Of a stretch of DNA of 64,000 nucleotides, positions 4,485 to 57,851 are shown piece by piece. The DNA lies in contig OZ024761.1 in NCBI GenBank assembly GCA_964016885.1, forward strand, positions 4,898,001 to 4,962,000, in the 5' to 3' direction. This stretch comes from Eledone cirrhosa. Lineage: Eukaryota. Within the stretch, counting starts at the first letter, position 1. The number at the start of each line of letters is the position of its first letter. Under the pieces are notes generated by a model. That model was not told where the DNA came from. It made no database searches and saw nothing but the letters and a program-made list of their open reading frames with translations. The position numbers and the translations under genes are program-made.

Positions 4485-7067
4485 ATAAATAATGTGTGGT
4501 AAGATACTACTTATTGACTATAAAAAATGTAATATAAAAAGAACTAGGAAACAATTGCATAACATATTTAAAAACTTCAACTTAAGTATTACCTTAGATA
4601 ACAACATTAAAAACGTTAACTTCCTTGATGCTACCCTTTGCCTGGACTCTAAAATATATACTCCCTTTCATAAACCAAGCGAAAAACTACATTATGTAGA
4701 TACCAATTCTAACCACCCTAAATCTATATTAAACTCAATTACTAAAGGAATATCAAATACAATCTCTACTCTATCATATAATGAAACCATATTTAACAGT
4801 AATTCCCAATACTATAATGAGGCCTTAGCTAAATCAGGGCATAAAAATGAAATTAAATTTTTACCTATAAAATCACCTAGTTACAACATTATTTCTCACA
4901 ATATGGCCATGAATAAAAGTAATAAAAGTACTAGCCACTCTAACTCTAGTACGAAGGGTAATATCAAGCTTAACTCGCACCAGAATAAACACCCCAATAA
5001 TAATATAAACAGAAATATAAACAATACCTCAAATAACAATACAAAAAACAAAAATAGAAGAACTAATACATTTTTTAATCCCCCTTTCAATCTAAACGTC
5101 TCTACCAACTTGCCTAAGGCTTTCTTCTCAATCCTAGAAAAAACTTCCCAGTCGGCCACAAATACCATAATTTTACCAATAAAAATACCATTAACATCTC
5201 TTACTCTACCACACCTAACATCGCGTACCATATAGCTAGTAGTAATAAAAGGAAGATTAATAATTATTTGCAACTAATTAAATCACAACAGGGGGTGAAC
5301 TTACATAACAACATAGTACCAGAGAATTCTGGTAGCAATAATAGTAATAGCACTAATGAAATTAATAACAATGAGAATGATAACCACCATTACCCTAAAG
5401 CTATCCCTAACTACCATGCATCTACACGCCGTATTAACCAGTAAGTAAACAACCAGAATAACTGTAACTGTAGAACAAATAGAACTTTCCCCTTGGGAAA
5501 AAAATTGCTTAATCAAAGACATCATTTACTCATGCACAGTCAATACAAACAACACTTCAAAAACATATATCGGTTCTACTTCGAACTGCTTCAAGACGAG
5601 ATATAACTCGCATCTCCACACTTTCAAAAATTGCAATCTAGCCAACTCCACTTCTTCATCTAACTACATACACTCTCTGAAAACTAAGAATAGACCATAC
5701 ACACTTCAATGGGAGGTAGTAGATAAGGCCGCATCGTATAAACCACCAAATAAATTATGTAACCTCTCTCTTCTAGAGACTCACACTATAATCTATTCTA
5801 AACTAAACCTCTTAAATAGAAAATCAGAAATTTTTTCCATGTGCCAACACTACCACCGACACTCTTTCCACAACTTTAAACCTAGCTGAGAGTATATAAC
5901 AATGTCAGATCTGGATTCCTCACCACCATTAACACTTCGCCTCTAGGTTTTATCAGCATATAATTACTCCCAGAGCATTACATTCTATGATCAGCTCATT
6001 CCTCTTCTTACCTCCTATTTATCTCAAATTTTATACTCTACAATAACTATTAGGAATAAACATAAAGTTACCACCGTTTAATATAACTACTAAAACTTAC
6101 AAATATTTTATTCATTTAATTAATATATGGGTAGGTAGTAATAAAATAAGACCTTTAATGTATTATAGGAAAAAAGATTGTATTTAAAATTAAATATACA
6201 AATTTAAAAATAAATAGCATTATATAAAAGGATTCACTTATAACATAATATATTGTATATTAACGTATATAATTTAACTAATTGGAGCTGTAAACAACTA
6301 TATACAAATTAATCGCCAATTACCTTCCCTTTCACATTAGCTCCCCTTAATATAGATATCTAATTCACTTCCTGAAATTATACCGTTAGACAGATCACGC
6401 TAGAACAACTCGAACCCTTGATAAGATTGTAATAGGACCAATATACAATCCATAGTTGTAACTACTGATAAACATTTACTAAAATTTAACCAATGTAATG
6501 GAAAGGAAAACCTTAATATTAATACTCACAACACATGCACATTTGAACATTACCGGAACAATAATCACATTACATCCATCATAAACTTCATAGAAACTGC
6601 TTTTCATACACAAGCATCTCTGTCTGCTTAATATGCTGTTATACTTGTATTGGATTATGTGATACCTTTGCCATACTGTGTTATATATGCTTAGTACCAT
6701 TACTTGTTTCCTACCTGGTTATTCTGTACATGCCTAACACATCTGCACTCTTTCTATACGTTTGCCTATGTACCGCTAATGTCCTCGTTTTGCGAGTAAC
6801 TTTCTTCTTTAGTTCCTCTATAATTGTTGTATTATTCTTTTATAATCTTTGTCGCATCCACTGATACTGACCTCATCATCTTCACTCTTTAAATATTACA
6901 CTGTTAATGACAACACTAACATCTATGTATCTTTACGATTGTTCTGTGGAATAGGAGGTTAATTATATGTCTAAACTTTGGTAGTGCTCCGATGAATCCA
7001 AACGAAAGTTTGGAAGAAACGATTGTCAGCAATAAAATGTTTTGAACATAGTTTTGATTATTCTGTA
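4482..7067 (+). mobile_element. 5'-truncated, decayed Penelope-like element (end of RT, GIY-YIG, 3' region with hammerhead) between (TA)n arrays
   Basis: ORF 4492-5235 has VNFLDATL, PFHKP, SNHPKSIL and YNEAL. Downstream frameshifted CNCR..., YSCTV...TYIGSTSNCFKTRYNSH (GIY-YIG). Homologous to the 500-aa ORF at 17494. Confidence 0.9.
6985..7031 (+). ncRNA. type I hammerhead ribozyme (U4C core variant)
   Basis: tgct-CCGATGA-a-tccaaac/gaaa/gtttgga-a-GAAAC-gatt-GTC-agca: stems I and II pair; AATAAA follows. Confidence 0.8.
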
Positions 7068-9270: not shown

Positions 9271-9316
<46 letters not shown>

Positions 9317-9742
9317 CGGGTAAAATTCCCGATATATATATATATATATATACATACACACACACATATATAGTGGAAATGCCTTTCAAACAAAACATTC
9401 GCTATTATGACGGGGATGGAGGTAACCATAGTTCAAAAAGGTACTTAGCAGAGTTACAGGTATCTTTATTATATATATATAGCAATTACTTCTACAGGAC
9501 TAATAATGTTTCATTCGTATGGAATCAGATTCCTAATGATTTCATACGAATGAAGCAGTTCTATTTCTATAGAAGTCATTTCTTCCCCACCTTCACACAT
9601 TAAAATACGCTCATCAGATCTCAGACCACCTGCTGTTTTAATGATTTAACTGAAATGACTGCAAACAATAGGTGGCTCGTATCAACGGAGAAATAAATAT
9701 CTTCGTTGGTATGTTTCTGTTGGGACAGGTCAGAGAGAGAGA

Positions 9743-9825
<83 letters not shown>

Positions 9826-10651
9826 AGTCCGTCCACTCGACTTGCCTTTCTGTCGACCACACATAGTTACTCCTAATTTGGTTACCTCCTCTTCCCTTAT
9901 CTTACCTATTGTTTTTTATTTATAAATCTCCCTTTCTCGTTATACAAATTTTACACTGATACACTTTACCTACACCGCCTTACTAGTTGTCTTCTCTCCC
10001 TTATCCTTTCTAAACCTTACACTTTCCAGATTTTACCTTGTCCCATCCTATACTGTATGAAGGCGCATGACCGGGTGATGTGTTGTTTCCTTGAGCAAGA
10101 CACTTTATTTCACATTGCTCCAGTTTACTCAGCTGTAGAAATGAGATGATAGAGACTGGGATCCCTATCATTAAATTACCCAAGACACCCCCAACGAGAT
10201 ATACCTTGGAGGAGGCCAGCTAAACCTGCATAGGTGTGAGCTGTCACACACACACAATAGTTATTATTACTTCCTGGTGTTTCAACTGTCTTACACCCCC
10301 CTAATAATAACTGGTTATAGTTTCTATTCCTCTTCTCTAAACTTATTATCCTTTATTTTTATTGTGTCCCTAAAATCTTCTCAACCTTTTATTATTTCCC
10401 TTCCTTTTCTCTTTTTTACAATCATTCACTTTATTTTTAATTAAACAGCAATACTTAATTATCTCCCATTTTCATTAATGATCTCCCTTTGAATGATATT
10501 TACTTCCTCAATTTCAAACCAACACAAGATGGCTGCTATAACACTTTTTCACTTCCAACCTTTTAACATCAACATTCCATATTTAAAGTAAGTCTTTCAC
10601 TTCGGTGATATGATTTCATTTATGAGTTGATATGTTGTAAAGAATATTTTA

Positions 10652-10774
10652 GGCTCTGATGATAATTTTGACACACTTATTTATTTATATTTAATGGACT
10701 AATATCGATTTATATTTGATATCTCAACATCTATGTCCATTCTTACTGTGCAGTATTGAAACAACTTGTCTGCC
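10652..10774 (+). ncRNA. type I hammerhead-like motif with long stem II
   Basis: ggct-CTGATGA-...-GAAAC-aactt-GTC-tgcc; U-U mismatch at the base of stem I; followed by attaaa and a (TA)n array. Confidence 0.6.
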
Positions 10775-10826
10775 ATTAAATAGACATATGTATTCATAAA
10801 TCTTTGTTGTTCTCTCCAGCATTTTA

Positions 10827-10920
<94 letters not shown>

Positions 10921-10941
10921 ATAATAATAAAATTGAAGACT

Positions 10942-11006
<65 letters not shown>

Positions 11007-11027
11007 ATAATAATAAAATTGAAGACT

Positions 11028-11091
<64 letters not shown>

Positions 11092-11812
11092 ATGAATGAA
11101 GAGTAACATGGTTGGCTGTACAACAAGGGGCTTTATTGCAGGTATTGACAATTGTTTTTATTGACCAGGTGAGTCTAGGGGTCGCTAATCACTCGAAGTT
11201 GCGTCACTCGATCTCCATTACATTATTTACCTCTGACCAACTTTTCAGAATATAAAAACAATTCGCTCAAGGCAAGTTATATATAGAAAAATAGCGTATA
11301 ATCAAAACAATAACATCAATAATAAAATATATATTAGAAATAGGTAAAGAAGTTACAGATGTAAAAAGTAAAAAGTAAAAGATAAGAAAAAATATACAGT
11401 AAAAAGTAAGAAAACGGAAAAATATAAAGAAATCAGGATAAGTGAGGGCATGTAAATACAGACTATGATAGTGGTGGTGGTGAGTAAGTGTCCGTATAGG
11501 ATTCTGTGGTGGGTTTAGTGCTAACATGATAAGTCATATTCGAAACATACATAGATACGTGTAGAGAGTCTGATGTAGTGACAAATGAAAGAAAAAGCAA
11601 TAAATTAGAGATTAATTGGGAGATACTAGTATGAGATTTAAGGGCTTTCACTATTATTACTCCAAATATAACCTACATAGGAATTACTGCGAACTCGTTG
11701 CCTAACTATGGAAACATCTTTTTGAGTTAAACAAGGCCGTACGTTAAAACAATCCACAACGCAGAGTACTCACAACCTCTAACTGGATTACCTATAACGA
11801 TAAATTGTTATC

Positions 11813-11861
<49 letters not shown>

Positions 11862-12046
11862 GATAAATCTACCAAGAGTTTACGGTAGTGTCCAATCCGT
11901 ATGAAGAACTCAATGTATTCCGGATATCATGGAAAGAAGAGATGTAATGAAAATCCACTTTCGGTGAAAGATAAACGGTATACAGAGTCAAGATAAAATA
12001 TTAAACAAATAATGAATAAACAATTCCTTATATTAAACAAAAAAAG

Positions 12047-12201
12047 TTCATTATTTAACGATCGTTTCTAGGGTATATATGTGTTATAATTGGTATGCAT
12101 ATTCAACAGATCTATGTACAAAATTATACAAAATTATACAAATTATCAAGATTAAATATACATACCTAACACATATATACGCCGTCTTCAGAAATAATGA
12201 A
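12047..12201 (-). ncRNA. type I hammerhead ribozyme (mirror copy of 22662-22816)
   Basis: Reverse complement of the right-arm motif, with one substitution at 12164. Confidence 0.75.
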
Positions 12202-13030
12202 GTATATTTATTGATAATAACAACAATTCAAAATATCAGTTCAAAATTGACCAATGAAAACACAAAGGGTTAAAAGCAGTTCGGTGTGTGTATATACATG
12301 TAAAATCCTTACACATATTTTACAATAATGTGTGTATAATTTGTATGCGCATACTAAAAAGATGGATGCAAACACAAAATTTCAAGGTTAATATCTCTGT
12401 AAGCTTAATGCGCTGATAAGATGCGCATTGATACTTATGGAGTCAAGCATATAAATATATTTTTTCATACTCACACATATCAGTATAATCACACATACAT
12501 GCGCGTATATGCATAAATATACACATAACCACGAACATACAAACACACACACTCCCCCACTCACATTTATATATGTGGATATAAAATCATAAGCACATAG
12601 AAATTAAGTCACTCACATAAAACACTGGCACACACATTTCAAGATCAAGATACAGAAATTAGGTGGGAGGGGGGGGAGGGGTCAGTATTCAATTGTCTGA
12701 GCAGACTGCCTAATATAAATGTATCTATAAATTAAGAAAAATAAAAAAATAAAAACAATAAAATATAATAAATATAATATAATGTACATACACATACAGA
12801 TATACATACACATACATACATGTACGCGCACATAGAGATATTTACGCATACACACATACACACATACATATACAGTCATACACACACATACACTTACACG
12901 AACATACACATACACATATAAAAAGATATATATATACACACACACACGCGCAACACATACACACATACACATATATATAAAAAATAGATAATAAAGATAT
13001 ATATCCATATATATATATATACACACACAG

Positions 13031-13067
<37 letters not shown>

Positions 13068-13162
13068 CATATACATACATATACATACACATACATCTAA
13101 ATATACATACACATACATACACACATACATGTACATACATGTACATACATATACGCACATCG

Positions 13163-13210
<48 letters not shown>

Positions 13211-13593
13211 TCACATAGACATAAAGATACATACACACACAACTTACATACACACGTATATATATATATATATAGACGTACCTTCATACATAGAATTAGA
13301 TATATAATCATACATACATATGCACCTACTTATACTCATATAAATAAATACATACGCTTCCATATATGTGTATATACATAAAAAACAATACAACCTCACC
13401 AAACTCAGACATACAAATGAAAATAATAATAAAAAGGCATATGTATATACATACACACACGCATTAATAGAGATATATATATATACACACATACATACAC
13501 ATATATATATACATACACACACACATATATATACACATACATATATATATATATATATATACATACATATATATATATACACACACACATAGA

Positions 13594-13632
<39 letters not shown>

Positions 13633-14070
13633 ATATATATCCACACACTCATACCACCATAAATACACATACAAACACCCACATGCATATATATATATAT
13701 ATCTACATACACACACGTATACATATATATATATATATACATACACATATATATATATACACACACATAAAAAGCAGACATGCACATATATATATATATA
13801 TATATTTCATTACTCTTATATATACACATATTATATATACATACACAACCTCACTTATACACATATACACATAAGTTATATTACAATAATAATAAAGAAT
13901 AATATACATATATATATATACATATACATATATATATATATATATATATACATACATACATACACATACATACATACACATAAATATATACATACATAAA
14001 TACACACATACGAATAAAGACATATATTCACACATAGACACCTATATATATATATATATATATATATATC

Positions 14071-14116
<46 letters not shown>

Positions 14117-15870
14117 CACACACACACACACACACAGACACACATACACACTCACATATATATATATATATATATGTGTATGTGAGTGTGCGCACATACA
14201 CATATATACACACACACATACAAACACACACAAACACATACATATGCATACGTGCACACACACACACATATATCACATAGATACGAAGATAAACATATAA
14301 ATAGAGAGACATACATATATATACACAACACACATACACATACATACATACACGCATATACATATACATACATATATACACATATATATATTCCTATACA
14401 TACAAGCATACACATACATACACATATATACACATACATACAGATATACATACAACACATTCACATACACATACATATATAATACATATATATACATATA
14501 TATACATACATATGTATGTACAATCATATATACACACACAATCTTACATTCATATTTGCATGCTCATATATGTATTATTATATTTAGATATAAATACCCA
14601 AACCTATATAGACACCTACCTACATATATATTCATACATAGACGCTTACAAATACAGATGATAATAGTATGGGGGAAAGGGGGGGTTTGGAGAAGGGGAT
14701 CAAAGTAAATATATGTTTCAAGAAACATATAATATTTTCCGTATCTTAATTCAATGTATGTTCTTACATATTTTCAGTGCTAGGAAATACGAAATCTATG
14801 CATCTCAAAATAAATAAGTATACCATTAATCATATGTTAACTAAACCAAAGATAGTCAACATATTGATTTCTAAGGTGTAAATTAGTTAGGTTTATAATA
14901 TTTGAAGCAGAATTTTGAAGTCAAACAGTAGTAGATTATTAATTACATTATAACTAAATTAAAGTTAATAACATTATGGTATCAATATTAGGAGATGAAT
15001 TTAGTAATAGGGAAAAGAAACCCAAATAAAAATAAAATAAAGTATTACATCGGTAGTAGCATATAAATTATATGTTAACTAAATTAAAAATTATATATTT
15101 ATTTCAATAGTATACGTTAATTAGTATATGTTAATTAGGTATACAATACATAAAGCAGATATTGTATTTCATCAATAGCATAATATAATTATATGCAAAT
15201 AGAAATCAAAATTAATACGCATACATATACATATACATACACATACACATATACATACATATACACACATATATATATACATATATATATATATACATAT
15301 ATACATATATACACACATATACATACATACAGATACACATACACAACACACACATATACATATACATATACATATACATATCTTTTTCAAAAAATTGCAC
15401 AGAATATATTAACTAGGTATATATCCAAAACACATCCCATTCTATGATTACATGACATTCTGCAATTCGTCTGTATAAGGATACTAATTTTAAGCAAATT
15501 AAAATTAAAGTTTTAGGTTGATTAAAACTAAAACCAAATAATAAATATATTTCCAAAATGTATATTAATTAGGTCTATAATACTAAAAATTCTTTCTCCG
15601 TCATTGGATACATGATATTATTTTGTTATATTTTATCTGTAAAAGAATTATAATAAAAAAAAAAAAAAAAAAAAAAAAAATTATAATAAAAGGTTTAAAT
15701 AAATTAAAATTAATCTATAAATTAAATTACTAAGTATATATTAGTAATATTTAAAGGTTTTTCACAATTTATGATTACATAATATTTTCTCATCTGTAAT
15801 AAAATATTAATTAAATTAAATTTATAGGTTAACTAACATTTAAATTAAATTAATTTCTAGAATAATGTTA

Positions 15871-17373
15871 TTAATTAGGTTTATAATATTTAAATGTTTT
15901 TTTTAGTTTATGATTACACGATATAATTAATTCCTGTCGTTTATTTAATAAGATATCCTTAGACTTCATTATTTCAAATAGTTCTTGGGAACATAATCTA
16001 CATTCCTTTCTATTATTTTGATAAGGGGTGGCTCTTTTGAGCACACTCCAGGTCAAATCATATTTTATATTCTTATTTTTATAACTATTGATTTTTTCTG
16101 CTAGAGATGTTGTATTAGCCAGTGCGGCATTTTTAAAACTATGTTTGTGGGTATTAAACCTTGTCTTAAAATTGTTAGAGGTAGCTCCTATATATGAGCA
16201 AATAGAATCTTTAGTTTTAACATTACATTTATAGACTATGTTGTTAACAAGACAATTCCCTTTTAATGGGCAGTTTGTTTTGTTTCTACAGTTACATCCT
16301 TTCGTTAATTCTGTATTTGAGGAGATATTATTGTTAATTTGATGTACTGGTGGTATACTTATGGTTTTCTTACATTTAAATGCATTATATGCACTTATAT
16401 TTTGTTTTATGTTATTTGTTGTAGAGTATGAGAATTTAACTGTAGACCTATTTAAGATTTGATGGTATTTGTGGTTTGGCGGGAAGTTTTTCTCAAGGAT
16501 ATAAAAAAATTTTTTAGCAATATTATCCTTAACTTGTAAATTAAAAGGAGCATTATACCAAGTAACTCGTCTATTACGGTTTCTATGTTGTTTATTATTT
16601 TTATTATTTTTATAGGTTGTATCATGATTTTTACTAGGAGGATTAATGTTAATGATCTCACCACAACTATTTTTAGTTATATTTGTAGATTTAGGTGTTT
16701 TATCTTTTTTATTAGGAGTTTTATTATTAATATTTATTATAGTTGTATGATGAGTAGTTTTTTGAGGGTTACTATACTTTATATTAGAAGATTTAGTATT
16801 TTGGGGTATATTGTGGGTGGCATTTAGGTGTGTACTTTTCATTTGGTGTTTGTTGGTAATATTATGCTGTATGCTTTCAGTATTTTTAGTAGAAGGTATA
16901 TACTCTAATCTATTTTTGTGACCACTTCTATCTAGAGCTTCATTATAAAAGGTCGCATTTTTATCAAATACATCTTGGTTAGAAGAAAGGTTAGAAATTC
17001 TAAGTGATATATTATATGCAAGGTTTTTAAGGATAGATTTAGGGTGATTAGATTGTGAGTGTATGTAATGTAAGTTTTGGTTAGGTTTATGGTAAGGTTG
17101 GTATATACCCGTAGCTAAATCTAAAGTTATATCTAGGAAATTTACTACTTTACTTGTTTTTTCAAAAGTAATATTAAGATTATAATAGTCTTTAAGGAAA
17201 GTTCTAATATGTTTTTTGTTTTTTTCGATTTCTGAAAGGCTAAGGTTGTTAGAAAGAAGAAGACAGTCATCACGATATAAACCACCTTTGAGGTGGGGAA
17301 AAGAGGCATTTATGTTGAAAAGGAGAAAGAGGCCCATAAGATCAGTAATTTGGGCGGAATCGCTTGAACCCAT
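15871..17373 (-). CDS. Penelope-like element ORF fragment (C-terminal half of RT + Cys linker + GIY-YIG endonuclease), left arm
   Basis: FDITMGSSDSAQITDLMGL, GLYRDDCL (catalytic DD), VNFLDITL, CNCRNKTNCPLKGNC, IVYKC...SYIGATSNNFKTRFNTH, CRLCSQE; open for 500 aa; frame continues to the axis. Confidence 0.93.
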   Translation of the reverse strand: MGSSDSAQITDLMGLFLLFNINASFPHLKGGLYRDDCLLLSNNLSLSEIEKNKKHIRTFLKDYYNLNITFEKTSKVVNFLDITLDLATGIYQPYHKPNQNLHYIHSQSNHPKSILKNLAYNISLRISNLSSNQDVFDKNATFYNEALDRSGHKNRLEYIPSTKNTESIQHNITNKHQMKSTHLNATHNIPQNTKSSNIKYSNPQKTTHHTTIININNKTPNKKDKTPKSTNITKNSCGEIININPPSKNHDTTYKNNKNNKQHRNRNRRVTWYNAPFNLQVKDNIAKKFFYILEKNFPPNHKYHQILNRSTVKFSYSTTNNIKQNISAYNAFKCKKTISIPPVHQINNNISSNTELTKGCNCRNKTNCPLKGNCLVNNIVYKCNVKTKDSICSYIGATSNNFKTRFNTHKHSFKNAALANTTSLAEKINSYKNKNIKYDLTWSVLKRATPYQNNRKECRLCSQELFEIMKSKDILLNKRQELIISCNHKLKKTFKYYKPN

Positions 17374-17493
17374 AGTAATATCAAAAAGATTACTGTATGT
17401 GTTTCTGGTCCAGTACTCATTCTGAAATTCAATATTGAATTTCAGAATGAGTACTGGACCAGAAACACATACAGTAATCTTTTTGATATTACT

Positions 17494-18996
17494 ATGGGTT
17501 CAAGCGATTCCGCCCAAATTACTGATCTTATGGGCCTCTTTCTCCTTTTCAACATAAATGCCTCTTTTCCCCACCTCAAAGGTGGTTTATATCGTGATGA
17601 CTGTCTTCTTCTTTCTAACAACCTTAGCCTTTCAGAAATCGAAAAAAACAAAAAACATATTAGAACTTTCCTTAAAGACTATTATAATCTTAATATTACT
17701 TTTGAAAAAACAAGTAAAGTAGTAAATTTCCTAGATATAACTTTAGATTTAGCTACGGGTATATACCAACCTTACCATAAACCTAACCAAAACTTACATT
17801 ACATACACTCACAATCTAATCACCCTAAATCTATCCTTAAAAACCTTGCATATAATATATCACTTAGAATTTCTAACCTTTCTTCTAACCAAGATGTATT
17901 TGATAAAAATGCGACCTTTTATAATGAAGCTCTAGATAGAAGTGGCCACAAAAATAGATTAGAGTATATACCTTCTACTAAAAATACTGAAAGCATACAG
18001 CATAATATTACCAACAAACACCAAATGAAAAGTACACACCTAAATGCCACCCACAATATACCCCAAAATACTAAATCTTCTAATATAAAGTATAGTAACC
18101 CTCAAAAAACTACTCATCATACAACTATAATAAATATTAATAATAAAACTCCTAATAAAAAAGATAAAACACCTAAATCTACAAATATAACTAAAAATAG
18201 TTGTGGTGAGATCATTAACATTAATCCTCCTAGTAAAAATCATGATACAACCTATAAAAATAATAAAAATAATAAACAACATAGAAACCGTAATAGACGA
18301 GTTACTTGGTATAATGCTCCTTTTAATTTACAAGTTAAGGATAATATTGCTAAAAAATTTTTTTATATCCTTGAGAAAAACTTCCCGCCAAACCACAAAT
18401 ACCATCAAATCTTAAATAGGTCTACAGTTAAATTCTCATACTCTACAACAAATAACATAAAACAAAATATAAGTGCATATAATGCATTTAAATGTAAGAA
18501 AACCATAAGTATACCACCAGTACATCAAATTAACAATAATATCTCCTCAAATACAGAATTAACGAAAGGATGTAACTGTAGAAACAAAACAAACTGCCCA
18601 TTAAAAGGGAATTGTCTTGTTAACAACATAGTCTATAAATGTAATGTTAAAACTAAAGATTCTATTTGCTCATATATAGGAGCTACCTCTAACAATTTTA
18701 AGACAAGGTTTAATACCCACAAACATAGTTTTAAAAATGCCGCACTGGCTAATACAACATCTCTAGCAGAAAAAATCAATAGTTATAAAAATAAGAATAT
18801 AAAATATGATTTGACCTGGAGTGTGCTCAAAAGAGCCACCCCTTATCAAAATAATAGAAAGGAATGTAGATTATGTTCCCAAGAACTATTTGAAATAATG
18901 AAGTCTAAGGATATCTTATTAAATAAACGACAGGAATTAATTATATCGTGTAATCATAAACTAAAAAAAACATTTAAATATTATAAACCTAATTAA
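17494..18996 (+). CDS. Penelope-like element ORF fragment (C-terminal half of RT + Cys linker + GIY-YIG endonuclease), right arm
   Basis: Protein identical to the left-arm ORF. The frame starts at the axis (17434: IEFQNEYWTRNTYSNLFDITMG), so the N-terminal RT motifs are missing. Confidence 0.93.
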   Translation: MGSSDSAQITDLMGLFLLFNINASFPHLKGGLYRDDCLLLSNNLSLSEIEKNKKHIRTFLKDYYNLNITFEKTSKVVNFLDITLDLATGIYQPYHKPNQNLHYIHSQSNHPKSILKNLAYNISLRISNLSSNQDVFDKNATFYNEALDRSGHKNRLEYIPSTKNTESIQHNITNKHQMKSTHLNATHNIPQNTKSSNIKYSNPQKTTHHTTIININNKTPNKKDKTPKSTNITKNSCGEIININPPSKNHDTTYKNNKNNKQHRNRNRRVTWYNAPFNLQVKDNIAKKFFYILEKNFPPNHKYHQILNRSTVKFSYSTTNNIKQNISAYNAFKCKKTISIPPVHQINNNISSNTELTKGCNCRNKTNCPLKGNCLVNNIVYKCNVKTKDSICSYIGATSNNFKTRFNTHKHSFKNAALANTTSLAEKINSYKNKNIKYDLTWSVLKRATPYQNNRKECRLCSQELFEIMKSKDILLNKRQELIISCNHKLKKTFKYYKPN

Positions 18997-20748
18997 TAAC
19001 ATTATTCTAGAAATTAATTTAATTTAAATGTTAGTTAACCTATAAATTTAATTTAATTAATATTTTATTACAGATGAGAAAATATTATGTAATCATAAAT
19101 TGTGAAAAACCTTTAAATATTACTAATATATACTTAGTAATTTAATTTATAGATTAATTTTAATTTATTTAAACCTTTTATTATAATTTTTTTTTTTTTT
19201 TTTTTTTTATTATAATTCTTTTACAGATAAAATATAACAAAATAATATCATGTATCCAATGACGGAGAAAGAATTTTTAGTATTATAGACCTAATTAATA
19301 TACATTTTGGAAATATATTTATTATTTGGTTTTAGTTTTAATCAACCTAAAACTTTAATTTTAATTTGCTTAAAATTAGTATCCTTATACAGACGAATTG
19401 CAGAATGTCATGTAATCATAGAATGGGATGTGTTTTGGATATATACCTAGTTAATATATTCTGTGCAATTTTTTGAAAAAGATATGTATATGTATATGTA
19501 TATGTATATGTGTGTGTTGTGTATGTGTATCTGTATGTATGTATATGTGTGTATATATGTATATATGTATATATATATATATATGTATATATATATGTGT
19601 GTATATGTATGTATATGTGTATGTGTATGTATATGTATATGTATGCGTATTAATTTTGATTTCTATTTGCATATAATTATATTATGCTATTGATGAAATA
19701 CAATATCTGCTTTATGTATTGTATACCTAATTAACATATACTAATTAACGTATACTATTGAAATAAATATATAATTTTTAATTTAGTTAACATATAATTT
19801 ATATGCTACTACCGATGTAATACTTTATTTTATTTTTATTTGGGTTTCTTTTCCCTATTACTAAATTCATCTCCTAATATTGATACCATAATGTTATTAA
19901 CTTTAATTTAGTTATAATGTAATTAATAATCTACTACTGTTTGACTTCAAAATTCTGCTTCAAATATTATAAACCTAACTAATTTACACCTTAGAAATCA
20001 ATATGTTGACTATCTTTGGTTTAGTTAACATATGATTAATGGTATACTTATTTATTTTGAGATGCATAGATTTCGTATTTCCTAGCACTGAAAATATGTA
20101 AGAACATACATTGAATTAAGATACGGAAAATATTATATGTTTCTTGAAACATATATTTACTTTGATCCCCTTCTCCAAACCCCCCCTTTCCCCCATACTA
20201 TTATCATCTGTATTTGTAAGCGTCTATGTATGAATATATATGTAGGTAGGTGTCTATATAGGTTTGGGTATTTATATCTAAATATAATAATACATATATG
20301 AGCATGCAAATATGAATGTAAGATTGTGTGTGTATATATGATTGTACATACATATGTATGTATATATATGTATATATATGTATTATATATGTATGTGTAT
20401 GTGAATGTGTTGTATGTATATCTGTATGTATGTGTATATATGTGTATGTATGTGTATGCTTGTATGTATAGGAATATATATATGTGTATATATGTATGTA
20501 TATGTATATGCGTGTATGTATGTATGTGTATGTGTGTTGTGTATATATATGTATGTCTCTCTATTTATATGTTTATCTTCGTATCTATGTGATATATGTG
20601 TGTGTGTGTGCACGTATGCATATGTATGTGTTTGTGTGTGTTTGTATGTGTGTGTGTATATATGTGTATGTGCGCACACTCACATACACATATATATATA
20701 TATATATATGTGAGTGTGTATGTGTGTCTGTGTGTGTGTGTGTGTGTG

Positions 20749-20794
<46 letters not shown>

Positions 20795-21236
20795 GATATA
20801 TATATATATATATATATATATAGGTGTCTATGTGTGAATATATGTCTTTATTCGTATGTGTGTATTTATGTATGTATATATTTATGTGTATGTATGTATG
20901 TGTATGTATGTATGTATATATATATATATATATATATGTATATGTATATATATATATATGTATATTATTCTTTATTATTATTGTAATATAACTTATGTGT
21001 ATATGTGTATAAGTGAGGTTGTGTATGTATATATAATATGTGTATATATAAGAGTAATGAAATATATATATATATATATATGTGCATGTCTGTTTTTTAT
21101 GTGTGTGTATATATATATATGTGTATGTATATATATATATATATATGTATACGTGTGTGTATGTAGATATATATATATATATGCATGTGGGTGTTTGTAT
21201 GTGTATTTATGGTGGTATGAGTGTGTGGATATATAT

Positions 21237-21275
<39 letters not shown>

Positions 21276-21661
21276 TCTATGTGTGTGTGTGTATATATAT
21301 ATATGTATGTATATATATATATATATATATGTATGTGTATATATATGTGTGTGTGTATGTATATATATATGTGTATGTATGTGTGTATATATATATATCT
21401 CTATTAATGCGTGTGTGTATGTATATACATATGCCTTTTTATTATTATTTTCATTTGTATGTCTGAGTTTGGTGAGGTTGTATTGTTTTTTATGTATATA
21501 CACATATATGGAAGCGTATGTATTTATTTATATGAGTATAAGTAGGTGCATATGTATGTATGATTATATATCTAATTCTATGTATGAAGGTACGTCTATA
21601 TATATATATATATACGTGTGTATGTAAGTTTGTGTGTGTATGTATCTTTATGTCTATGTGA

Positions 21662-21711
<50 letters not shown>

Positions 21712-21794
21712 CGATGTGCGTATATGTATGTACATGTATGTACATGTATGTGTGTATGTATGTGTATGTATGTGTATGTATATGTATGTATATG

Positions 21795-21831
<37 letters not shown>

Positions 21832-22661
21832 CTGTGTGTGTATATATATATATATGGATATATATCTTTATTATCTATTTTTTATATATATGTGTATGTG
21901 TGTATGTGTTGCGCGTGTGTGTGTGTATATATATATCTTTTTATATGTGTATGTGTATGTTCGTGTAAGTGTATGTGTGTGTATGACTGTATATGTATGT
22001 GTGTATGTGTGTATGCGTAAATATCTCTATGTGCGCGTACATGTATGTATGTGTATGTATATCTGTATGTGTATGTACATTATATTATATTTATTATATT
22101 TTATTGTTTTTATTTTTTTATTTTTTCTTAATTTATAGATACATTTATATTAGGCAGTCTGCTCAGACAATTGAATACTGACCCCTCCCCCCCCTCCCAC
22201 CTAATTTCTGTATCTTGATCTTGAAATGTGTGTGCCAGTGTTTTATGTGAGTGACTTAATTTCTATGTGCTTATGATTTTATATCCACATATATAAATGT
22301 GAGTGGGGGAGTGTGTGTGTTTGTATGTTCGTGGTTATGTGTATATTTATGCATATACGCGCATGTATGTGTGATTATACTGATATGTGTGAGTATGAAA
22401 AAATATATTTATATGCTTGACTCCATAAGTATCAATGCGCATCTTATCAGCGCATTAAGCTTACAGAGATATTAACCTTGAAATTTTGTGTTTGCATCCA
22501 TCTTTTTAGTATGCGCATACAAATTATACACACATTATTGTAAAATATGTGTAAGGATTTTACATGTATATACACACACCGAACTGCTTTTAACCCTTTG
22601 TGTTTTCATTGGTCAATTTTGAACTGATATTTTGAATTGTTGTTATTATCAATAAATATAC

Positions 22662-22816
22662 TTCATTATTTCTGAAGACGGCGTATATATGTGTTAGGCA
22701 TGTATATTTAATCTTGATAATTTGTATAATTTTGTATAATTTTGTACATAGATCTGTTGAATATGCATACCAATTATAACACATATATACCCTAGAAACG
22801 ATCGTTAAATAATGAA
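22662..22816 (+). ncRNA. type I hammerhead ribozyme near the 3' end of the Penelope element
   Basis: ttcattattt-CTGAAGA-...gtatatatgtgtta...taacacatatatac...-GAAAC-gatc-GTT-aaataatgaa: 10-bp stem I, 14-bp helix in stem II (imperfect next to the core), palindromic loop III. Confidence 0.8.
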
Positions 22817-22884
22817 CTTTTTTTGTTTAATATAAGGAATTGTTTATTCATTATTTGTTTAATATTTTATATATATATATATAT

Positions 22885-23078
22885 ATAGGAACGAGTAGGA
22901 CCCCGACGGCTGAGCTCAAGCCGTTTCGACGGCTAATTCTGGACAGAATTAGCCGTCGAAACGGCTTGAGCTCAGCCGTCGGGGTCCTACTCGTTCCTAT
23001 TACCCACTCTACTACCCCAAGTATTGAGTACTTTGGTGCGTTATGGTCCACCTGGTTCCTTACCACATTTCCTTCGTT
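22885..23078 (+). mobile_element. short TA-flanked element containing the 3' half of a hammerhead, with a perfect 57-bp-arm fold-back. Family members at 30611-30768, 36471-36530 (-) and 38263-38312
   Basis: Palindrome 22885-23000 with a 2-nt loop; GAAAC-ggct-tgagctc-agcc-GTC-gggg; tail tacccactctactaccc...ccttcgtt(AT)n shared with the 30611 copy. Confidence 0.75.
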
Positions 23079-23848: not shown

Positions 23849-23934
23849 CCGTATTTTGACTAAAGAAATTAAAGAAATTATTTAGCCTGATAGTAGGCTA
23901 AATAATTTCTTTAATTTCTTTAGTCAAAATACGG
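23849..23934. repeat. 40-bp-arm perfect inverted repeat abutting a (TA)n array
   Basis: ccgtattttgactaaagaaattaaagaaattatttagcct-gatagt-aggctaaataatttctttaatttctttagtcaaaatacgg. Confidence 0.95.
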
Positions 23935-30571: not shown

Positions 30572-30614
<43 letters not shown>

Positions 30615-30790
30615 ATGTTTGACTCCGACGGCAGAGCTCAAGTCGTCGAAACGGCTTGAGCTCTGCCGTCCGGGTAAAACATTTTCCTATTACCCACTCT
30701 ACTACCCTAAGTATTGAATACTCTGGTGCGTTATGGTCCATCTGGTTCCTTACCACACCTCCTTCGTTATATATATATATATATATATAT

Positions 30791-33361
30791 AAAGAAAAAA
30801 AGATGAAATCGAAAATGCAACTGGAGTCTTATTTTTAAAAATATATATATATTTATTTGGTTCCTTTACCGGTTACGCAATTCTTCTGCTTTAAAAAGTA
30901 GAGTTGAGATGGAGGGTCTGTGGTCTTTCTCACATCCGGTTGGTCTTTGAATGTCACTTGTTTTATATGGAAAAAAGTGGCTCAAAACGACAGGTTTTTA
31001 GAGAAGTAATTTGATTGGTTGGTGAATAAGTATAATAAATTTCACGCCAGATCGCGTTACAAAGAAAGTTTCTTTAAACAGGGGGGCTCAGGTTGTTTTT
31101 TCATATATGAGTGTTTGAATTTCTTTTTACTTTAAAAAAAGGGACTCACGAAGTCTTTTTCTCATAAATGTAATTTGATTGTTTATAAATGAAATTATTT
31201 CTGTCAGGTGAACAAGTTCATTAAATTTCGCGCCCGTATTTGGGAATTTATTTTGTAGCTTTTTAGAGAATTTTGACAAACAAAATATAATGGTCAAGAG
31301 AAATGGGATGGGAGAAGTGTTCTGGTTCAGTGAATATAGCAGGTTGTTTTTTCATATATGAGTGAAGTTTGGTTGGTTGATGTAGTCACGTGAATAAGTA
31401 TATCAGCTTTCGCGTAAGTTTGTTTGAATTTCTTTTTACTTTTAAAAAAGTGGCTCACGAAGGCTTTTTTAATAAATGTAATTTGATTGGTTATAAATGA
31501 AATTATGACTGTCACGTGAACAAGTTCATAAAATTTCGCGCCCGTATTTGGGAATTTATTTTGTAGCCTTTTAGAGAATTTTATGACAAGCAAAAGATAA
31601 TGGTCAAGAGAAATGGGATGGGAGAATTGTTCTGGTTCAGTGAACATGGCTGGTTCGCTGGGGTGTCAGAATTCAGACTTTCTATTGAAATAAAGAAAGT
31701 AGAGATATGTATGTTTATTTGTGTGCTTGTGTGTGTGTGTGTATAGGAAGATGATTCTATTAGTAGAAATGGGGGAGGGAGTTGTGTGTGTGAGTATGTG
31801 TGTGTATATGTGTGTTATGTGTGTGTGTGTGTGGGAGTGTGTTAAGATGGAGAGAATTTATATATTTTGTGTGTGTGTATGTGTGTAGGAAAGTGATTCT
31901 ATTAGTAGAAATGCTATTTAACCCTTTAGCATTTAAACTGGCTGTATCTGGCCAGAATTATCTCACCCTTTTCTGTTCAAGCAGACTGTAACCTGCCACT
32001 TGATGTTAAGTTATTGTTCTCAAACTAAATAATATCAAAATCTGATAGATTGAATACAATGTGAGATATTATGTGAGGTAAGGCCTTTACCGTGAAAATA
32101 CAATAGTAAATGTAGAGTAATGTAAATGCCAAAGGGTCAAGCAAACCATGATTTCTTCAAAAGTGATAAATAGAGAGATGAGGAAGAGACAAAGAAGGAA
32201 GAGGATGATGATGATAAGAAGAAAAACTGAGCTGGAGTTGACAGTTGTTAGTAACATTTGGGATATTTTTCTTTCACCAATCTAGCTCAGTGGGGTAGCA
32301 CCCAGTTAAGCAAACATCACAATATCCACGTTTACCAGCCTCTGCATTGAAAATAGCACCTTTTCTGACAGCTAATTGAAGCCCATAAACAGAGAGATAT
32401 TCTAAGCTGTTGGCACCTAGATGTTCTGCCAGCTCAGTGGAACCATACTTGTTTGCAATCAACTCTTCCCTAGTTGGGATATTTATACCCATATAACATG
32501 GGTGTTTAACAGCTGGAGAAGCCACTCTTATATGGACTTCAGTGGCTCCTGAAGACTTCAGTAGTTTAATGATCGTTGTTCCACGCATAATAGAATCATC
32601 AATAAGGACAATCCGTTTTCCCTTGACATTCTCAGTCAGGGCACCAAATTTCTTAGCAACACCAAGTTGTCGGAGTCTTAAGCTTGTTTGGATGAATGTA
32701 CAACCGACATAGCGGTTTTTACACAAGGAATTCCGAGCATCTCAGCATAGGCTATAGCAGCAGGTGTTGCTGATTCTGGGACAGTACTGACCAGATCTTC
32801 ATCCACAGGAAATTCTATAGCCAGTTGTTGACCACACCTTTTTCTCACAGAATATACGATTTGACCTTCTATAATACTGTCTGGTCGTGCAAAATATACA
32901 TATTCAAATATACAGAAAACAGTGTTTGTTGTCAGGATAGGGCATTCGACAAAGGGACTTAATTCCTGTTTGGCTAATTTCAACTATTTCACCAGGTAAA
33001 ACTTCCCGGATATATTTGGCACCACATTTTTAAGTAAAAAGAAATTCAAACACTCATATATGAACCCCCCCCCCCTGTTTGAAGAACTCTGTAACGCGAA
33101 CTGGCGCGAAATTTATTATAATTATTCATCAACCAATCAAATTACTTCCCTAAAAACCTGGCGTTTCGAGCCACTTTTTTCCATATAAAACAAGTAACAT
33201 TCAGAGACCAACCGGATGTGAGAAAGACCACAGACCCTCCATCTCAATTCTACTTTTGAAAAGCAGAAGAATTGCATAACCGGTAAAGGAACCAAATAAA
33301 TATATATATATTTTTAAAAATAAGACTCCAGTTGCATTTTCGATTTCATTTCGATTTCTTT
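30791..33361. mobile_element. TA-flanked cassette with ~340-bp imperfect terminal inverted repeats carrying a captured PPAT fragment
   Basis: 30791-31138 is the reverse complement of 33027-33361 (e.g. gaaatcgaaaatgcaactggagtcttatttttaaaaa / tttttaaaaataagactccagttgcattttcgatttc); internal tandem duplication at 31089-31335 and 31340-31645. Confidence 0.85.
32274..33024 (-). pseudogene. PPAT: 5'-truncated, intronless, frameshifted amidophosphoribosyltransferase (C-terminal/PRT part)
   Basis: [66 protein letters not shown] (PRPP loop), [35 protein letters not shown]; frameshifts near 32965 and 32720. Confidence 0.93.
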
Positions 33362-33530
33362 ATATATATATATATATATAAAATATGTAGTTTAGAAAGC
33401 CACAGCAATGCAGATGGGAAATCTCGAGGTAGGAAGTGAGTGAGAAATAGGAGAAAAGTGAAAATTGAGAGAAACGAAAAAACGAAAACAAAACAAAGGT
33501 AGAAGGGTTACCGTAGTGGAGATTTAATCC

Positions 33531-33617
33531 CTGTTGGAGACGCAGGACATGGCAGCGATAATGAGGGACAGAGACCGCTGGAGAGAACTCGTCCATGGAT
33601 CTCGGGAATTTTACCCG

Positions 33618-33669
<52 letters not shown>

Positions 33670-34085
33670 AAGGCGGGTAAAATTCCCGAGATCCATGGAC
33701 GAGTTCTCTCCAGCGGTCTCTGTCCCTCATTATCGCTGCCATGTCCTGCGTCTCCAACAGACCAGTGTCTGTCCTTAGGGCATCAACATACGTTAACCTT
33801 GGTCTTCCTCTTCTAGTGTGTCCATGTAGCGGCTCCCAAAGGAGCACTGAGTGCAATGTCAACTCTGGATGTCGGTGAGCATGTCCAGCTAACCTCAGTC
33901 TCCTCTGTGTCACTTTTGAGCTGACTTTTGGGATGGTCCCATACAGCTCTTCATTGCTGTAGTGGAGTCTGTGCTGCTGTATGGGTCTGAGACTTGGACA
34001 CTGACCAACAAACTCACTCAGATGGTGGATGGGTGCTACACGAGAATGCTGAGGATGGCTCTGAACATTAATCAGTATACACTGA

Positions 34086-36050: not shown

Positions 36051-36691
36051 TATATATATATATATATTAAAATAACAGATTAAAGTTTAAGCAAACGGGA
36101 TCTTCTGAAACTAACAAAGTCAATCTGTGAACGCAGAAGTGAAATATTGTTTTTTTTATCATGCTGAGTAACCCCCTCACTAACTTCTTACAATCCTATC
36201 TCAACCTCCTTTTCATCTATTGCACCATTTATGTGACAACATTTTTGATGTAATTTTTTATGACATTTTATGACATTATGTGCGTCATGTATTGTGTGTT
36301 TTTCTATATAGCGCTGGCCTTGGGACCCCTACTTGTTATTCCTACACTTATAACGGCTCTGTAGTATACTAGTTATCCTACATTGAGCTAAAACCACACC
36401 GTCATACCAAGGGCAATATATCTGCGTGTGTGCACATTAATATACTTGTCAACGAAAGTATATATATATATAGGAAAAAGCTTAACCCCGACGGCAGAGC
36501 TCAAGCCGTTTCGACGGCTATTTCTGGACTACTATATATATATATATATATTAGATATATATATATATATATATATATATTAATATTGTCTGGGATCCAG
36601 AAACCTTTGGTAATGGAGTAGTTATATTTTGTGTTGTTCACTTTCGAATTAAATAGCTCTGTTCTACACACACACACACACACACACATGC

Positions 36692-38094: not shown

Positions 38095-38335
38095 TATGTA
38101 TATATATATATATATATTGTTATACTTTGGGAGGGTTATACTTTGCGTGTGTTTCTTATTGGCAACATGACCCTCCGAAAGTATAACAATATCGGTTTCA
38201 ACACACGTTTTCAGATAAAGAATCTTGCTAAACAAATTCAGAAACGAAATGTATATATATATATTGTCCAGAAATAGCCGTCGAAACGGCTTGAGCTCTG
38301 CCGTCGGGGTCATACATTTTCATATATATATATAC

Positions 38336-39150: not shown

Positions 39151-39181
<31 letters not shown>

Positions 39182-39303
39182 TTTTAGTATATGTTGGTTG
39201 TTTACCGACTCCTCAGTATGCAGATTGGAGCACTCGACGAAGTACGCCGGTTGGTTTGGTTACTCCGGAGTAATGTAAAATAATTAAGTCAAATATTTCA
39301 AAC

Positions 39304-40648
39304 ATGGCTTCGTTTATTAAAGATGTACTGCTATATATATTTCGGTGCAGTATGTCTATCTCCTGGTTGTGTTGTTGTTTCTCTGAGGAACTGGAATCAT
39401 ATGAATTCGAACAAACCAATTTTGGCGTCGTAGGACACTCTCTCCTCCCATTGGTCAGTTGTGAGAACATGTAAAAAGTCTATAGAAATTTTTCTGAGGC
39501 AAGACAATCTGTTGTGGTTGTTTATGTTAAGTACAGCTGACCTCCTCCATTGTGTTGGTAGTGGTAGTGGTGTTAAGGGGTCAGCTGGCAGGTCAGCATT
39601 GGTTTGCTGCTGCTATGTTCAGAAGAATTTGTGTGTGAGGGTTGGCATCTATCCTGCCACCATTTCACGTGACGGTGGGGAGGGGGGGCAAACAGATAAA
39701 AAATAAGATAAAATAAAATAAATAAATAAAAAAAAATAAATAAATAAATAAATAAAATAAAATAAAATGCGTGTGTGTTACAACCAATATCAAAGTTTGA
39801 AAGATTTGGAAAATATTGAGTGAAGTAGAAAGGCTGTGTGTCAGAATCGAGAAGTGCAAAGGATGACAATCTTTACACTATCATGGGATGGCGCGTTTTA
39901 AGAGCAAATGAGACAAGAGTGGAGTGTAAAACACCAGAACCTGAGTGTCAAAATCGGAAATGCAGAAGACTACAGTTCTTATCTCGACATAAAGTACATA
40001 CGCGTGTATGTGAAAAAAACTCTGAACACCTTTACATAGGAGCCACATCAACGAGCTTTAAAGACCGATGGTATAACCATCGCCATTACTTTAATAGGGA
40101 GGACAAAAGGAAAAGTACGGCTCTTTCCGAACTGATCTGGAAGCTGAAGCTGGACGGGACCCCGTACTCTCTGGCCTGGTTCAAAATCAAGAAAGTAGCA
40201 CCTGATAAAGGGGGATCTGGCATCTGCAAACTATGTTTGAGCGAGACCCTCGAGATACTCAGCGGTGGAAGCAGCCTAATAAACATCAGGACTGACTTCT
40301 TCGGGTCATGTAGACGCTGTACTTAACAAAAACAACCACAACAGATTGTCTTGCCTCAGAAAAATTTCTATAGACTTTTGACTGAGGAATGTTATCACAA
40401 CTGACCAATGGGAGGAGAGAGTGTCCTACGACGCCAAAATTCGTTTGTTCGAATTCATATGATTCCAGTTCCTCAGAGGACTAGCAACACAACCAGGAGC
40501 TGGACATATCGGAGTATTGACGGAGTAAAACACTTCAACAACATGTGTACCTGTCTCTACCACATCAATTCGGACTGCCTGAAGAGGTCACAGCCATCAT
40601 GATGGCTGTCACCGAAATATATATAGCATTACATCTTTAATAAACGAA

Positions 40649-40653
<5 letters not shown>
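39304..40653 (+). mobile_element. Penelope-like 3' fragment (GIY-YIG) with an inverted copy of its 3' region placed 5'
   Basis: ORF 39838-40326: LYIGATSTSFKDRWYNHRH...STALSELIWKLK...CKLCLSE. 39304-39537 is the reverse complement of 40316-40653 with an internal deletion. Confidence 0.88.
40576..40628 (+). ncRNA. type I hammerhead ribozyme
   Basis: tgc-CTGAAGA-ggt-c-acagccatc/at/gatggctgt-c-acc-GAAA-tatata-TA-gca; AATAAA follows. Confidence 0.85.
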
Positions 40654-42645: not shown

Positions 42646-43238
42646 TTAACATGAAACTTCTGGCAGGGCGTTCACGTATTGGGGACCTAAAAAATCTATG
42701 TATGAAGTGTTTTGCGCCATCAAGTAATCAGTGTTGTCGGAAAATATCAGGTTTTTACCGTATTGCGTAGAAAATAGTATTTCGTCGCTCATGCTATCAA
42801 AATTTTCAAAAGTGTCTTCAATTTGATCGGAGCTTAAGCTGTTGCGGCCGACAATAGCATGAGAAGGGGTTGCGGCTAAATGACAGGTTTCATAATCGTC
42901 AATGTTTGCAGTGGTACCATCCCGACACAGTAGCTCATAGTTACCCTTGTCAGCCTCGTTCAAGAATGTTGTATGCTTCACAAAGGCAACATCGGCGTCA
43001 GTCGCTTTCAGGCATCTAGCTGCTCCGTCGTACCCGTAGTAAAGGTTATCACTGTTCCGTTTGCAGTTTGGAGTACACAACATACACATATTTGTACCGC
43101 TCATTGCTCCGGGCACACAGCTAGCAGTGAAGAAATCCGAGGCTTGTTTTAACTGGTTGTTTTTATCACTAAATAAAACACTCATTGGGATAAACCATCC
43201 GGCAGTTTTATTCAGACCAGTGTGACAAGATTTCTTAC
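42646..43238 (-). CDS. TF: transferrin-family protein, exon 4 (last)
   Basis: Acceptor ttcctatctag|GT AAG AAA; KKSCHTGLNKTAGWFIPM...SCVPG...LCTP...YYGYDGAARCL...DVAFVKH...YELLCRDG...CHLAATPSHAIV. Confidence 0.95.
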
Positions 43239-43328
43239 CTAGATAGGAAATAAAGACAAGGAATATAGAATATGGGAATATTTTGTGAAAACGTTAGATA
43301 CCAAATAAATATCAGGAACATTCTAGAA

Positions 43329-57471: not shown

Positions 57472-57851
57472 CCGTCAGACGGGCTTCAAAACTGTTTCTG
57501 TCTGCCAAATCTCACTTACAACAGATGGCAGGACCACCACCCGTGACTATAGGGATTGACACTTGCTTAAGATGTTGTTAGATCGAACTCGGGGCTTAAT
57601 CGAACCTCTTAAACCTTCGATGAACTGCCACCACAATTTTCGGCAATAAATTATGGAAGACTAAACTGGCACTTCGTCAGTTACGACGAGTGATCAACTG
57701 AACAGCCTGCTCGTGAAATTAACGTAGAAGTGGCTGAGCATTCCACAGACACGCGTCCCCTTAACGGAGTTCTCAGGGAAATTCAGTGTGACACAGAATA
57801 TGACAAGGCTGGCCCTTCGAATTACAGGTACAACTCATTTATTCCAGCTGA

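Follow-up and report, generated by a model that had tools for sequence, protein, structure and literature searches.

The 64,000-nucleotide stretch of the Eledone cirrhosa genome analyzed here (contig OZ024761.1 of assembly GCA_964016885.1, positions 4,898,001 to 4,962,000 of the forward strand; hereafter the window) holds a 10.9-kb palindrome whose two arms are copies of a 5'-truncated Penelope-like element, joined head to head at their truncated ends. A self-BLAST of the window returns a single inverted match, 11993-22870, with 99.41% identity over 10,906 columns. The axis lies at 17433/17434 with zero spacer, the arms measure 5441 bases (left) and 5437 bases (right), and the first mismatch comes only after 512 perfect pairs. 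At its outer end the right arm directly meets a TA run, while the left arm goes on for 134 further bases before it reaches (TA)22 (Table 1). The palindrome, known here from the assembly sequence, is probably a real locus.

Outside simple repeats, the two arms differ by three transitions (16921/17946, 13774/21093, and 12164/22699), and there is one further G/A difference at a microsatellite edge (14111/20754). The nine length differences include seven gains by the right arm (four of +2 TA, one of +2 TG, and two of +1 T), a poly(T) of 26 versus 22, and 12 additional bases of the left arm at 13108; unequal lengths are found in 5 of the 23 TA runs. The first-pass annotation had described a spacerless palindrome of this size with this axis, arms of about 5.4 kb, these three transitions, microsatellite length differences, a (TA)n target, a mirror ending at the element's ends, and a left arm longer by some 135 bp, and all of this was borne out. 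In the 3' region, which makes up the outer part of each arm, the first segment (18950-19150, mirror 15720-15920) repeats the end of the open reading frame in degenerate form, and go-back joints occur in contigs there.

Table 1. Features of the palindrome and its edges, in window coordinates
Feature	Position	Strand	Remarks
(TA)22 run	11815..11858		left remnant of the likely target array
One-sided tail, 134 bp	11859..11992	-	element origin judged from the hairpin motif, not from same-family copies
Left arm, 5'-truncated Hydra-clade element	11993..17433	-	self-BLAST, arm alignment
Left hammerhead-like motif	12049..12199	-	mirror of 22664-22814; stem II U-A pair kept at 12164
Left open frame, 520 codons	15871..17433	-	reverse transcriptase from just before motif 4/B' (TMGS) to GIY-YIG
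Axis, TA dinucleotide	17433..17434		zero-spacer joint
Right open frame	17434..18996	+	same protein as the left frame; one transition inside, silent
Right-arm 3' region, 3.9 kb, microsatellite-rich	18997..22870	+	mirrored at 11993-15870
Right hammerhead-like motif	22664..22814	+	motif by eye and fold
TA run at right end	22868..22887		short 3' end of the right arm
Separate small insertion	22885..23077	+	head-to-head, TA runs on both sides

Each arm carries 520 open codons running from the axis to a stop. The encoded protein has 203 homologues at E<=0.001 (best 1e-89), and their alignment, with TMGS, YRDD, the thumb, VY...YIG, and the residues R, H, E, and N, identifies it as the C-terminal part of a Penelope-like reverse transcriptase (RT) with a GIY-YIG nuclease. 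The frame reads, in order, RT from just before motif 4/B' (TMGS), YRDD, the thumb, a linker rich in Asn (21% over 98 residues), CxCx5C, and GIY-YIG. The truncation point just before motif 4/B' removes about 300 N-terminal codons, including the first catalytic Asp, and the RWK and DKT motifs present in full-length homologues belong to the region cut off. No close protein relative was found, the best long match being about 40% identical; Pfam gave zero hits for the window protein, and one homologue (P0003) hit GIY-YIG weakly. Judged from its sequence, each arm is a Penelope-like element of the EN+ type with a single open reading frame for RT plus a GIY-YIG at the C terminus. Neither arm is likely to be mobile by itself, because each is cut inside the RT. 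An assignment to the Foldback type or to the miniature inverted-repeat transposable elements among DNA transposons was rejected: there is no non-repeated core, and the arms encode RT and GIY-YIG.

Judged by motifs rather than by a tree, the arms fit the definition of the Hydra clade of Penelope-like elements (PMC8557442): they have CxCx5C, CxxC, and CxH, they show no conserved CCHH, and their target is TA. The three cysteines of the CxCx5C linker (C380, C382, and C388) are invariant in 14 of 14 aligned sequences, and C478/C481, E484, N497, and C506/H508, which include the CxxC and CxH motifs, are invariant in the alignment as well. A CCHH is not conserved: the window protein has two Cys between VY and YIG that 12 homologues do not keep as a pair, and the second His is absent. 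The likeness to Hydra-1_Obim was judged by eye from the supplement alignment of PMC8557442. The uninterrupted RT/GIY-YIG frame (put at 500 residues by the first-pass annotation) and the 5' truncation within the RT of a Penelope-like element have thus been confirmed, and the class can be narrowed to the Hydra clade.

Both arms carry a putative hammerhead motif pointing outward, as the first-pass annotation had said; it is recognized by eye and in a fold. In the right arm, it consists of CUGAAGA (22672-22678), a long stem II, and GAAAC (22795-22799), with a predicted cut after GUU 22806, 64 nt ahead of the arm's end. The fold shows the core, stem I, the long stem II, and a palindromic stem III (z -5.3), with an imperfect base of stem II. 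One of the arm differences falls within this motif: the base at 22699 in the right arm breaks a stem II pair, whereas the left arm keeps the U-A pair at 12164. A hammerhead pattern scan made for this analysis did not pick up the window motif, because the base of stem II is imperfect. In Rfam, a hammerhead was absent among the 150 matches listed of 160, and these matches were sub-threshold microRNAs, attributable to the hairpins and microsatellites.

The 134-bp tail carries an ACTC...TGAGTTCT hairpin at 11988-11905, which resembles a motif that comes after the hammerhead in Hydra relatives. Among 79 related metagenome loci, a hammerhead scan gave 57 hits in 48 loci, of which 48 hits in 42 loci were kept and 9 left out (two lay on the minus strand; the others fell within a frame, belonged to another type, or sat at the edge of a contig). 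The hairpin motif [AG]CTC...GAG.[AT]CT follows 36 of the 48 hammerhead sites, twice in 20 of them, against a background of 0.3%. Downstream of 16 of the 48 sites, a TA run lies within 230 nt, and the runs start either 30-56 nt (7/16) or 92-112 nt (9/16) after the cut, with none between; these are not 16 independent events, because several loci are near-duplicates, and one of them (L064) has more element sequence after the run. Where a tandem or sibling copy reveals the continuation, the TA run begins a few bases ahead of the first or the second hairpin. In Hydra-clade elements of loci L005-L079, a conserved GCTC...GAGCACT hairpin pair stands 25-160 nt past the hammerhead and before the start codon, and the insertions end just before either hairpin of the pair.

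In the window, the left arm ends about 45 nt behind the hairpin motif (28-43 nt in relatives), which corresponds to the long 3' end. The right arm ends 4 nt short of where the motif would lie, which corresponds to the short one. The 134 extra bases are thus likely to be the element's own tail, and the two arms are likely to use the two preferred 3' ends of Hydra relatives. What is new in this analysis is that the outer ends fit two end positions of these relatives, on either side of a conserved hairpin that lies behind the hammerhead, and that a neighboring 193-bp insertion, described below, has the same plan on a small scale. The hairpin motif speaks against the 134 bases being unrelated host DNA, which is less likely.

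The palindrome probably goes back to a single insertion. The slightly favored reading, to which we give a probability of about 0.4, is that both ends of a cut (TA)n target primed complementary DNA (cDNA) and the two cDNAs were joined end to end. The element's GIY-YIG nuclease would have cut both strands of the array. One target end would then have primed at a start site behind the conserved hairpin, giving the left arm with its tail, and the other at a site before the hairpin, giving the right arm without it. Both cDNAs would have run off the same broken 5' end of the RNA at 17433, and their identical 3' ends could have paired through the terminal TA and been extended on each other, producing a spacerless palindrome. 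Independent priming explains directly why the right arm stops at a typical Hydra 3' end. Support for the activities involved comes from a Poseidon protein, which cuts and extends both target strands, uses two RT start sites that bound a tail, and is predicted to form a dimer (PMC11167929).

The first-pass annotation had proposed that the cDNA snapped back and was copied. In such a scheme, one cDNA would have run from the tail end to 17433, folded back with the help of a few untemplated bases or a later-lost loop, and copied itself until it was cut, or came to a halt, at the foot of the tail hairpin; there TAT would have paired with the target's other end. This would yield the identical truncation point without an extra assumption; self-priming is also the published reading of palindromes at inverted junctions (PMC3846280), and the tail has been ascribed to nuclease resolution of an intermediate (PMC8557442). 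That seven of the nine length differences are right-arm gains looks as if the arms had different templates, although the number is small. Other copies of the family, where they are untruncated, continue in frame 5' of 17433 and, among the loose ends listed, have only T17433 in common with the mirror, so there is no templated stem at the axis, and untemplated bases or a lost loop would be needed. The stop would also have to coincide with the clade's short end, when the arm offers 655 TAT sites at which copying back could have ended. Finally, each arm seemingly has a change of its own (22699 in the right arm; 16921 in the left, deduced only from the absence of a listed difference there), which weighs against self-copying because an error of the first strand would be copied into both arms. 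A snap-back origin is therefore possible but rather unlikely, and priming of two cDNAs is slightly preferred over it because other family copies show only the TA overlap, and no stem, at the axis.

Other insertions in the window speak to the same choice. The small insertion at 22885-23077 (193 bp) has 57-bp inverted arms around a 2-nt spacer and TA runs on both sides; one arm ends before an ACTC...TGAGTACT hairpin and the other bears a tail, so that it repeats the palindrome's architecture in miniature. The bases of its loop agree, on the strand of the arm without a tail, with the antisense of two single copies; they would thus be templated on that arm, whose self-copying cannot extend into a tail. 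This copy favors two cDNAs there, provided that the two single copies show the native sequence. A second copy of its family at 30611-30768 has a different axis, with a native 6-bp stem and 4-nt loop, as snap-back would have it. The family as a whole is small and TA-targeting, with half a hammerhead and the same hairpin motif, and comprises 22885-23077, 30611-30768, 36459-36529, and 38265-38334; two copies are head-to-head palindromes with different axes, and two are single.

There are also Hydra remains elsewhere in the window. A fragment at 39304-40653 has 193-bp inverted arms around a 778-bp spacer. An older copy at 4489-7067, frameshifted and 5'-truncated between TA runs, has a canonical hammerhead (6989-7027) and is without an inverted arm. 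Because three other head-to-head, TA-flanked insertions lie in the window, the head-to-head shape is a regular product in the E. cirrhosa genome. Within 39174-40653, the 778-bp spacer holds a Hydra nuclease fragment, a hammerhead-like motif lies at about 40578-40627, and the left arm borders on a 130-bp piece in which the hairpin motif is oppositely oriented.

Several points weigh against the joining of two cDNAs. Both must stop at the same base after 5.4-5.6 kb, and the reuse of one broken RNA has to be assumed. A self-complementary dinucleotide at the break is common by chance (0.27), which makes the TA overlap weak support. The model leans, by analogy, on Poseidon activities, and that biochemistry comes from another clade. 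The copy at 30611-30768 fits snap-back on its native hairpin equally well. The short end (64 nt) and the tail (134 nt) exceed those of relatives, as do the hairpins, which are longer in the window family, and the comparison of the ends used distant relatives (about 40% identical in protein, with several near-duplicates among them) instead of same-family copies.

A further difficulty concerns persistence, since long zero-spacer palindromes are unstable. In mice, a 15.4-kb zero-spacer transgene palindrome was rearranged in 35% of offspring (PMC8701086). If the arm differences were germ-line mutations, the E. cirrhosa palindrome must have lasted many generations, which clashes with such a rate per generation. 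The paradox disappears if the differences arose as copying errors at insertion, or if the arms come from two loci. On the two-cDNA reading, most of the arm differences would go back to copying errors and slippage, and the insertion may therefore be very young. Its product is predicted to be unstable, and to have been dead on arrival because it lacks about 300 N-terminal codons, the first catalytic Asp among them.

Reads were compared over 17394-19180, in four runs, which show a high-copy family. One set of loose ends, at AATT sites, was set aside, as they look like restriction-library chimeras. Among the pieces listed from the four runs, a minority of all, there was no strand-change joint and no axis-crossing read or contig. 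At face value the lack of an axis-crossing piece weighs against the joined cDNAs, but because contigs drop rare forms it decides nothing in either direction. At some sites the window letter is wholly absent from the runs (at 17530, 0 of 130 raw reads), so they do not bear on the palindrome locus itself. In one sample, three runs contain 0.57-0.59 of the words of 9400-12780, which suggests that the sampled runs come from another individual or a sister species. Among the metagenome loci, a long spacerless palindrome was seen in 0 of 79, where short-read contigs cannot show long ones, and a few loci have inverted partial copies of 83-403 bp.

The palindrome could also be an artifact of assembly, in which a fold-back read (or a short true hairpin) at one copy and a near-identical sibling copy elsewhere were linked by way of the repeat, so that the two flanks come from different loci. 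Fold-back reads, some without sequence between their halves, make up about 0.55-0.6% of nanopore genomic reads (PMC12870357). The high copy number of the family, the perfect symmetry of the first 512 bp, and the absence of an axis-crossing piece among those listed would all suit such an error, and both outer ends would then be the true ends of two copies. In addition, nothing in the window ties the flanks together: a gene or repeat bridging them was sought in the window and none was found, and the transferrin and amidophosphoribosyltransferase (PPAT) fragments described below both end to the right of the palindrome. However, two rare things would be needed, a surviving chimeric read and a sibling more than 99% alike along 5 kb, and that sibling must also share variants that are rare in the compared runs. 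The other head-to-head insertions of the window argue against an artifact as well. Fold-backs are virtually absent from HiFi reads (PMC12870357), which counts only if the assembly rests on HiFi. According to the first-pass annotation, a read chimera would not be expected to stop at the element boundary. This holds for a lone fold-back read, against which the arm differences and the end of the mirror at the element's end both speak, but not for a fold-back read joined to a sibling copy. Overall, an artifact is unlikely.

The differences from other copies of the family give some information on the history of the arms. Forty of 306 are listed, and all 40 are common to both arms, which points to a single template lineage. 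Eighteen of the 40 are silent, compared to 23% expected (p 0.0014). The 13 near-private changes common to both arms (5 silent and 8 not, p 0.15) are compatible with neutral drift, and they could predate a duplication at the DNA level. In such a DNA-level event, a longer or single copy might have broken inside the RT and undergone fold-back repair or sister-chromatid fusion, or recombination might have removed the spacer between two head-to-head copies; in yeast, breaks close to inverted repeats of 5-9 bp can lead to palindromic duplication (PMC7999016). Yet nothing would make repair of this kind end at a typical element end and reconnect to a TA run, stability is higher with a spacer than without one, and the intact frame with its silent enrichment is what a recently active lineage would show. 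A later event of this kind is very improbable.

A more general and rather doubtful proposal can be made: that in Penelope-like elements a double-strand cut primes cDNA from both of its ends on a single RNA, from two start sites that the conserved hairpin pair marks, and that the cDNAs are joined end to end. One mechanism might then produce inverted 5' copies, one-sided tails, natural zero-spacer germ-line palindromes of more than 10 kb (when both cDNAs run off the same RNA end), and possibly kilobases of double-stranded RNA.

The window holds further inverted structures and gene fragments. At 30772-33380, inverted repeats of about 370 bp (90%), flanked by TA runs, surround a PPAT fragment (32274-33000, minus strand) that is C-terminal, intron-less, and frameshifted; this looks like a mobile element having captured a piece of a host gene. 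A palindrome at 33531-33760 (98%) has a central (TA)n run, the reverse of the main palindrome's arrangement, and a 20-bp piece of its end is present at 9314-9333. Perfect hairpins occur at 23849-23934 (40-bp arms, 6-nt spacer), directly after a TA run, and at 57428-57472 (21-bp arms, 3-nt spacer), at the end of a 43-bp tandem array. An 86-bp unit made of a TA run and 28 unique bases is repeated 2.7 times at 10828-11087 with 100% identity, by slippage or local assembly stutter. The long last exon of a transferrin-like gene lies on the minus strand at 42646-43240 and is 40-49% like the listed proteins, the best of which are from fishes.

How Penelope-like insertion is completed, and where inverted copies and one-sided tails come from, are named as open questions in PMC8557442 and PMC11167929. 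With its ends at two different preferred 3' ends, a near-complete palindrome can tell the folding of one cDNA from the joining of two. It also tells where to look in vitro, and the hairpin pair is a defined RNA substrate. If real, the locus is a natural test of the persistence of a multi-kb spacerless palindrome in an invertebrate germ line; if false, it is an instructive case of repeat-mediated mis-joining. In the literature on Penelope structure, cephalopod repeats, palindromes, fold-back artifacts, and priming, we met no multi-kb spacerless Penelope case and no account of a hairpin pair marking Hydra ends, although figures (e.g., PMC3846280 Fig. 2), subscription papers, Repbase, and bioRxiv supplements may hold some.

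The palindrome can be compared to several known systems. In L1 twin priming, one RNA is copied from both target ends, and microhomology joins the cDNAs; that process inverts sequence without duplicating it, whereas the window palindrome has the same 5.4 kb twice. There is close likeness to the Hydra clade (e.g., Penelope-13_HM and Hydra-1_Obim), which has a C-terminal GIY-YIG, CxCx5C, CxxC, and CxH without a conserved CCHH, carries a hammerhead close to the 3' end (a putative one in the window arms), and targets (TA)n (PMC8557442). In Penelope-13_HM, nt 1-966 of 3045 form an inverted copy that is 5'-truncated and brings a second hammerhead pointing outward, and the same source gives an inverted 5'-truncated copy and a one-sided tail, usually of 30-40 nt, as standard for Penelope-like elements. 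Both features are present in the window palindrome. It differs in that its copies are cut at the same base without a spacer, its arms are 5.4 kb rather than about 1 kb, its 3' region alone is 3.9 kb when known Hydra elements are generally <3 kb in all, its tail is 134 nt, and stem II of its putative hammerhead is very long.

Penelope elements of Adineta vaga (PMC3846280) share head-to-head structures, junction palindromes, a one-sided tail, and Asn-rich linker inserts, as well as long tandem and inverted structures in Pen3/Pen4 and a captured spacer before the 3' repeat in Pen1. They belong to another clade, the junction palindromes named there are 18-38 bp, the tails are about 31 bp, and the long inverted forms, most of which could not be assembled, are explained by self-priming. 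In vitro, PAc (from the Poseidon element of Anolis carolinensis) cuts both strands of an AT-rich target and extends them, with two RT start sites delimiting a tail (PMC11167929), as proposed here; it too is of another clade, and its start sites lie in an AC-rich stem-loop inside the open reading frame. The mouse transgene palindrome is likewise multi-kb, spacerless, and in an animal genome, but artificial. The long inverted copy is thus less new than the first-pass annotation implied (PMC3846280 and PMC8557442). The head-to-head form with a one-sided tail is already known, and it is the size and the missing spacer that are unusual.

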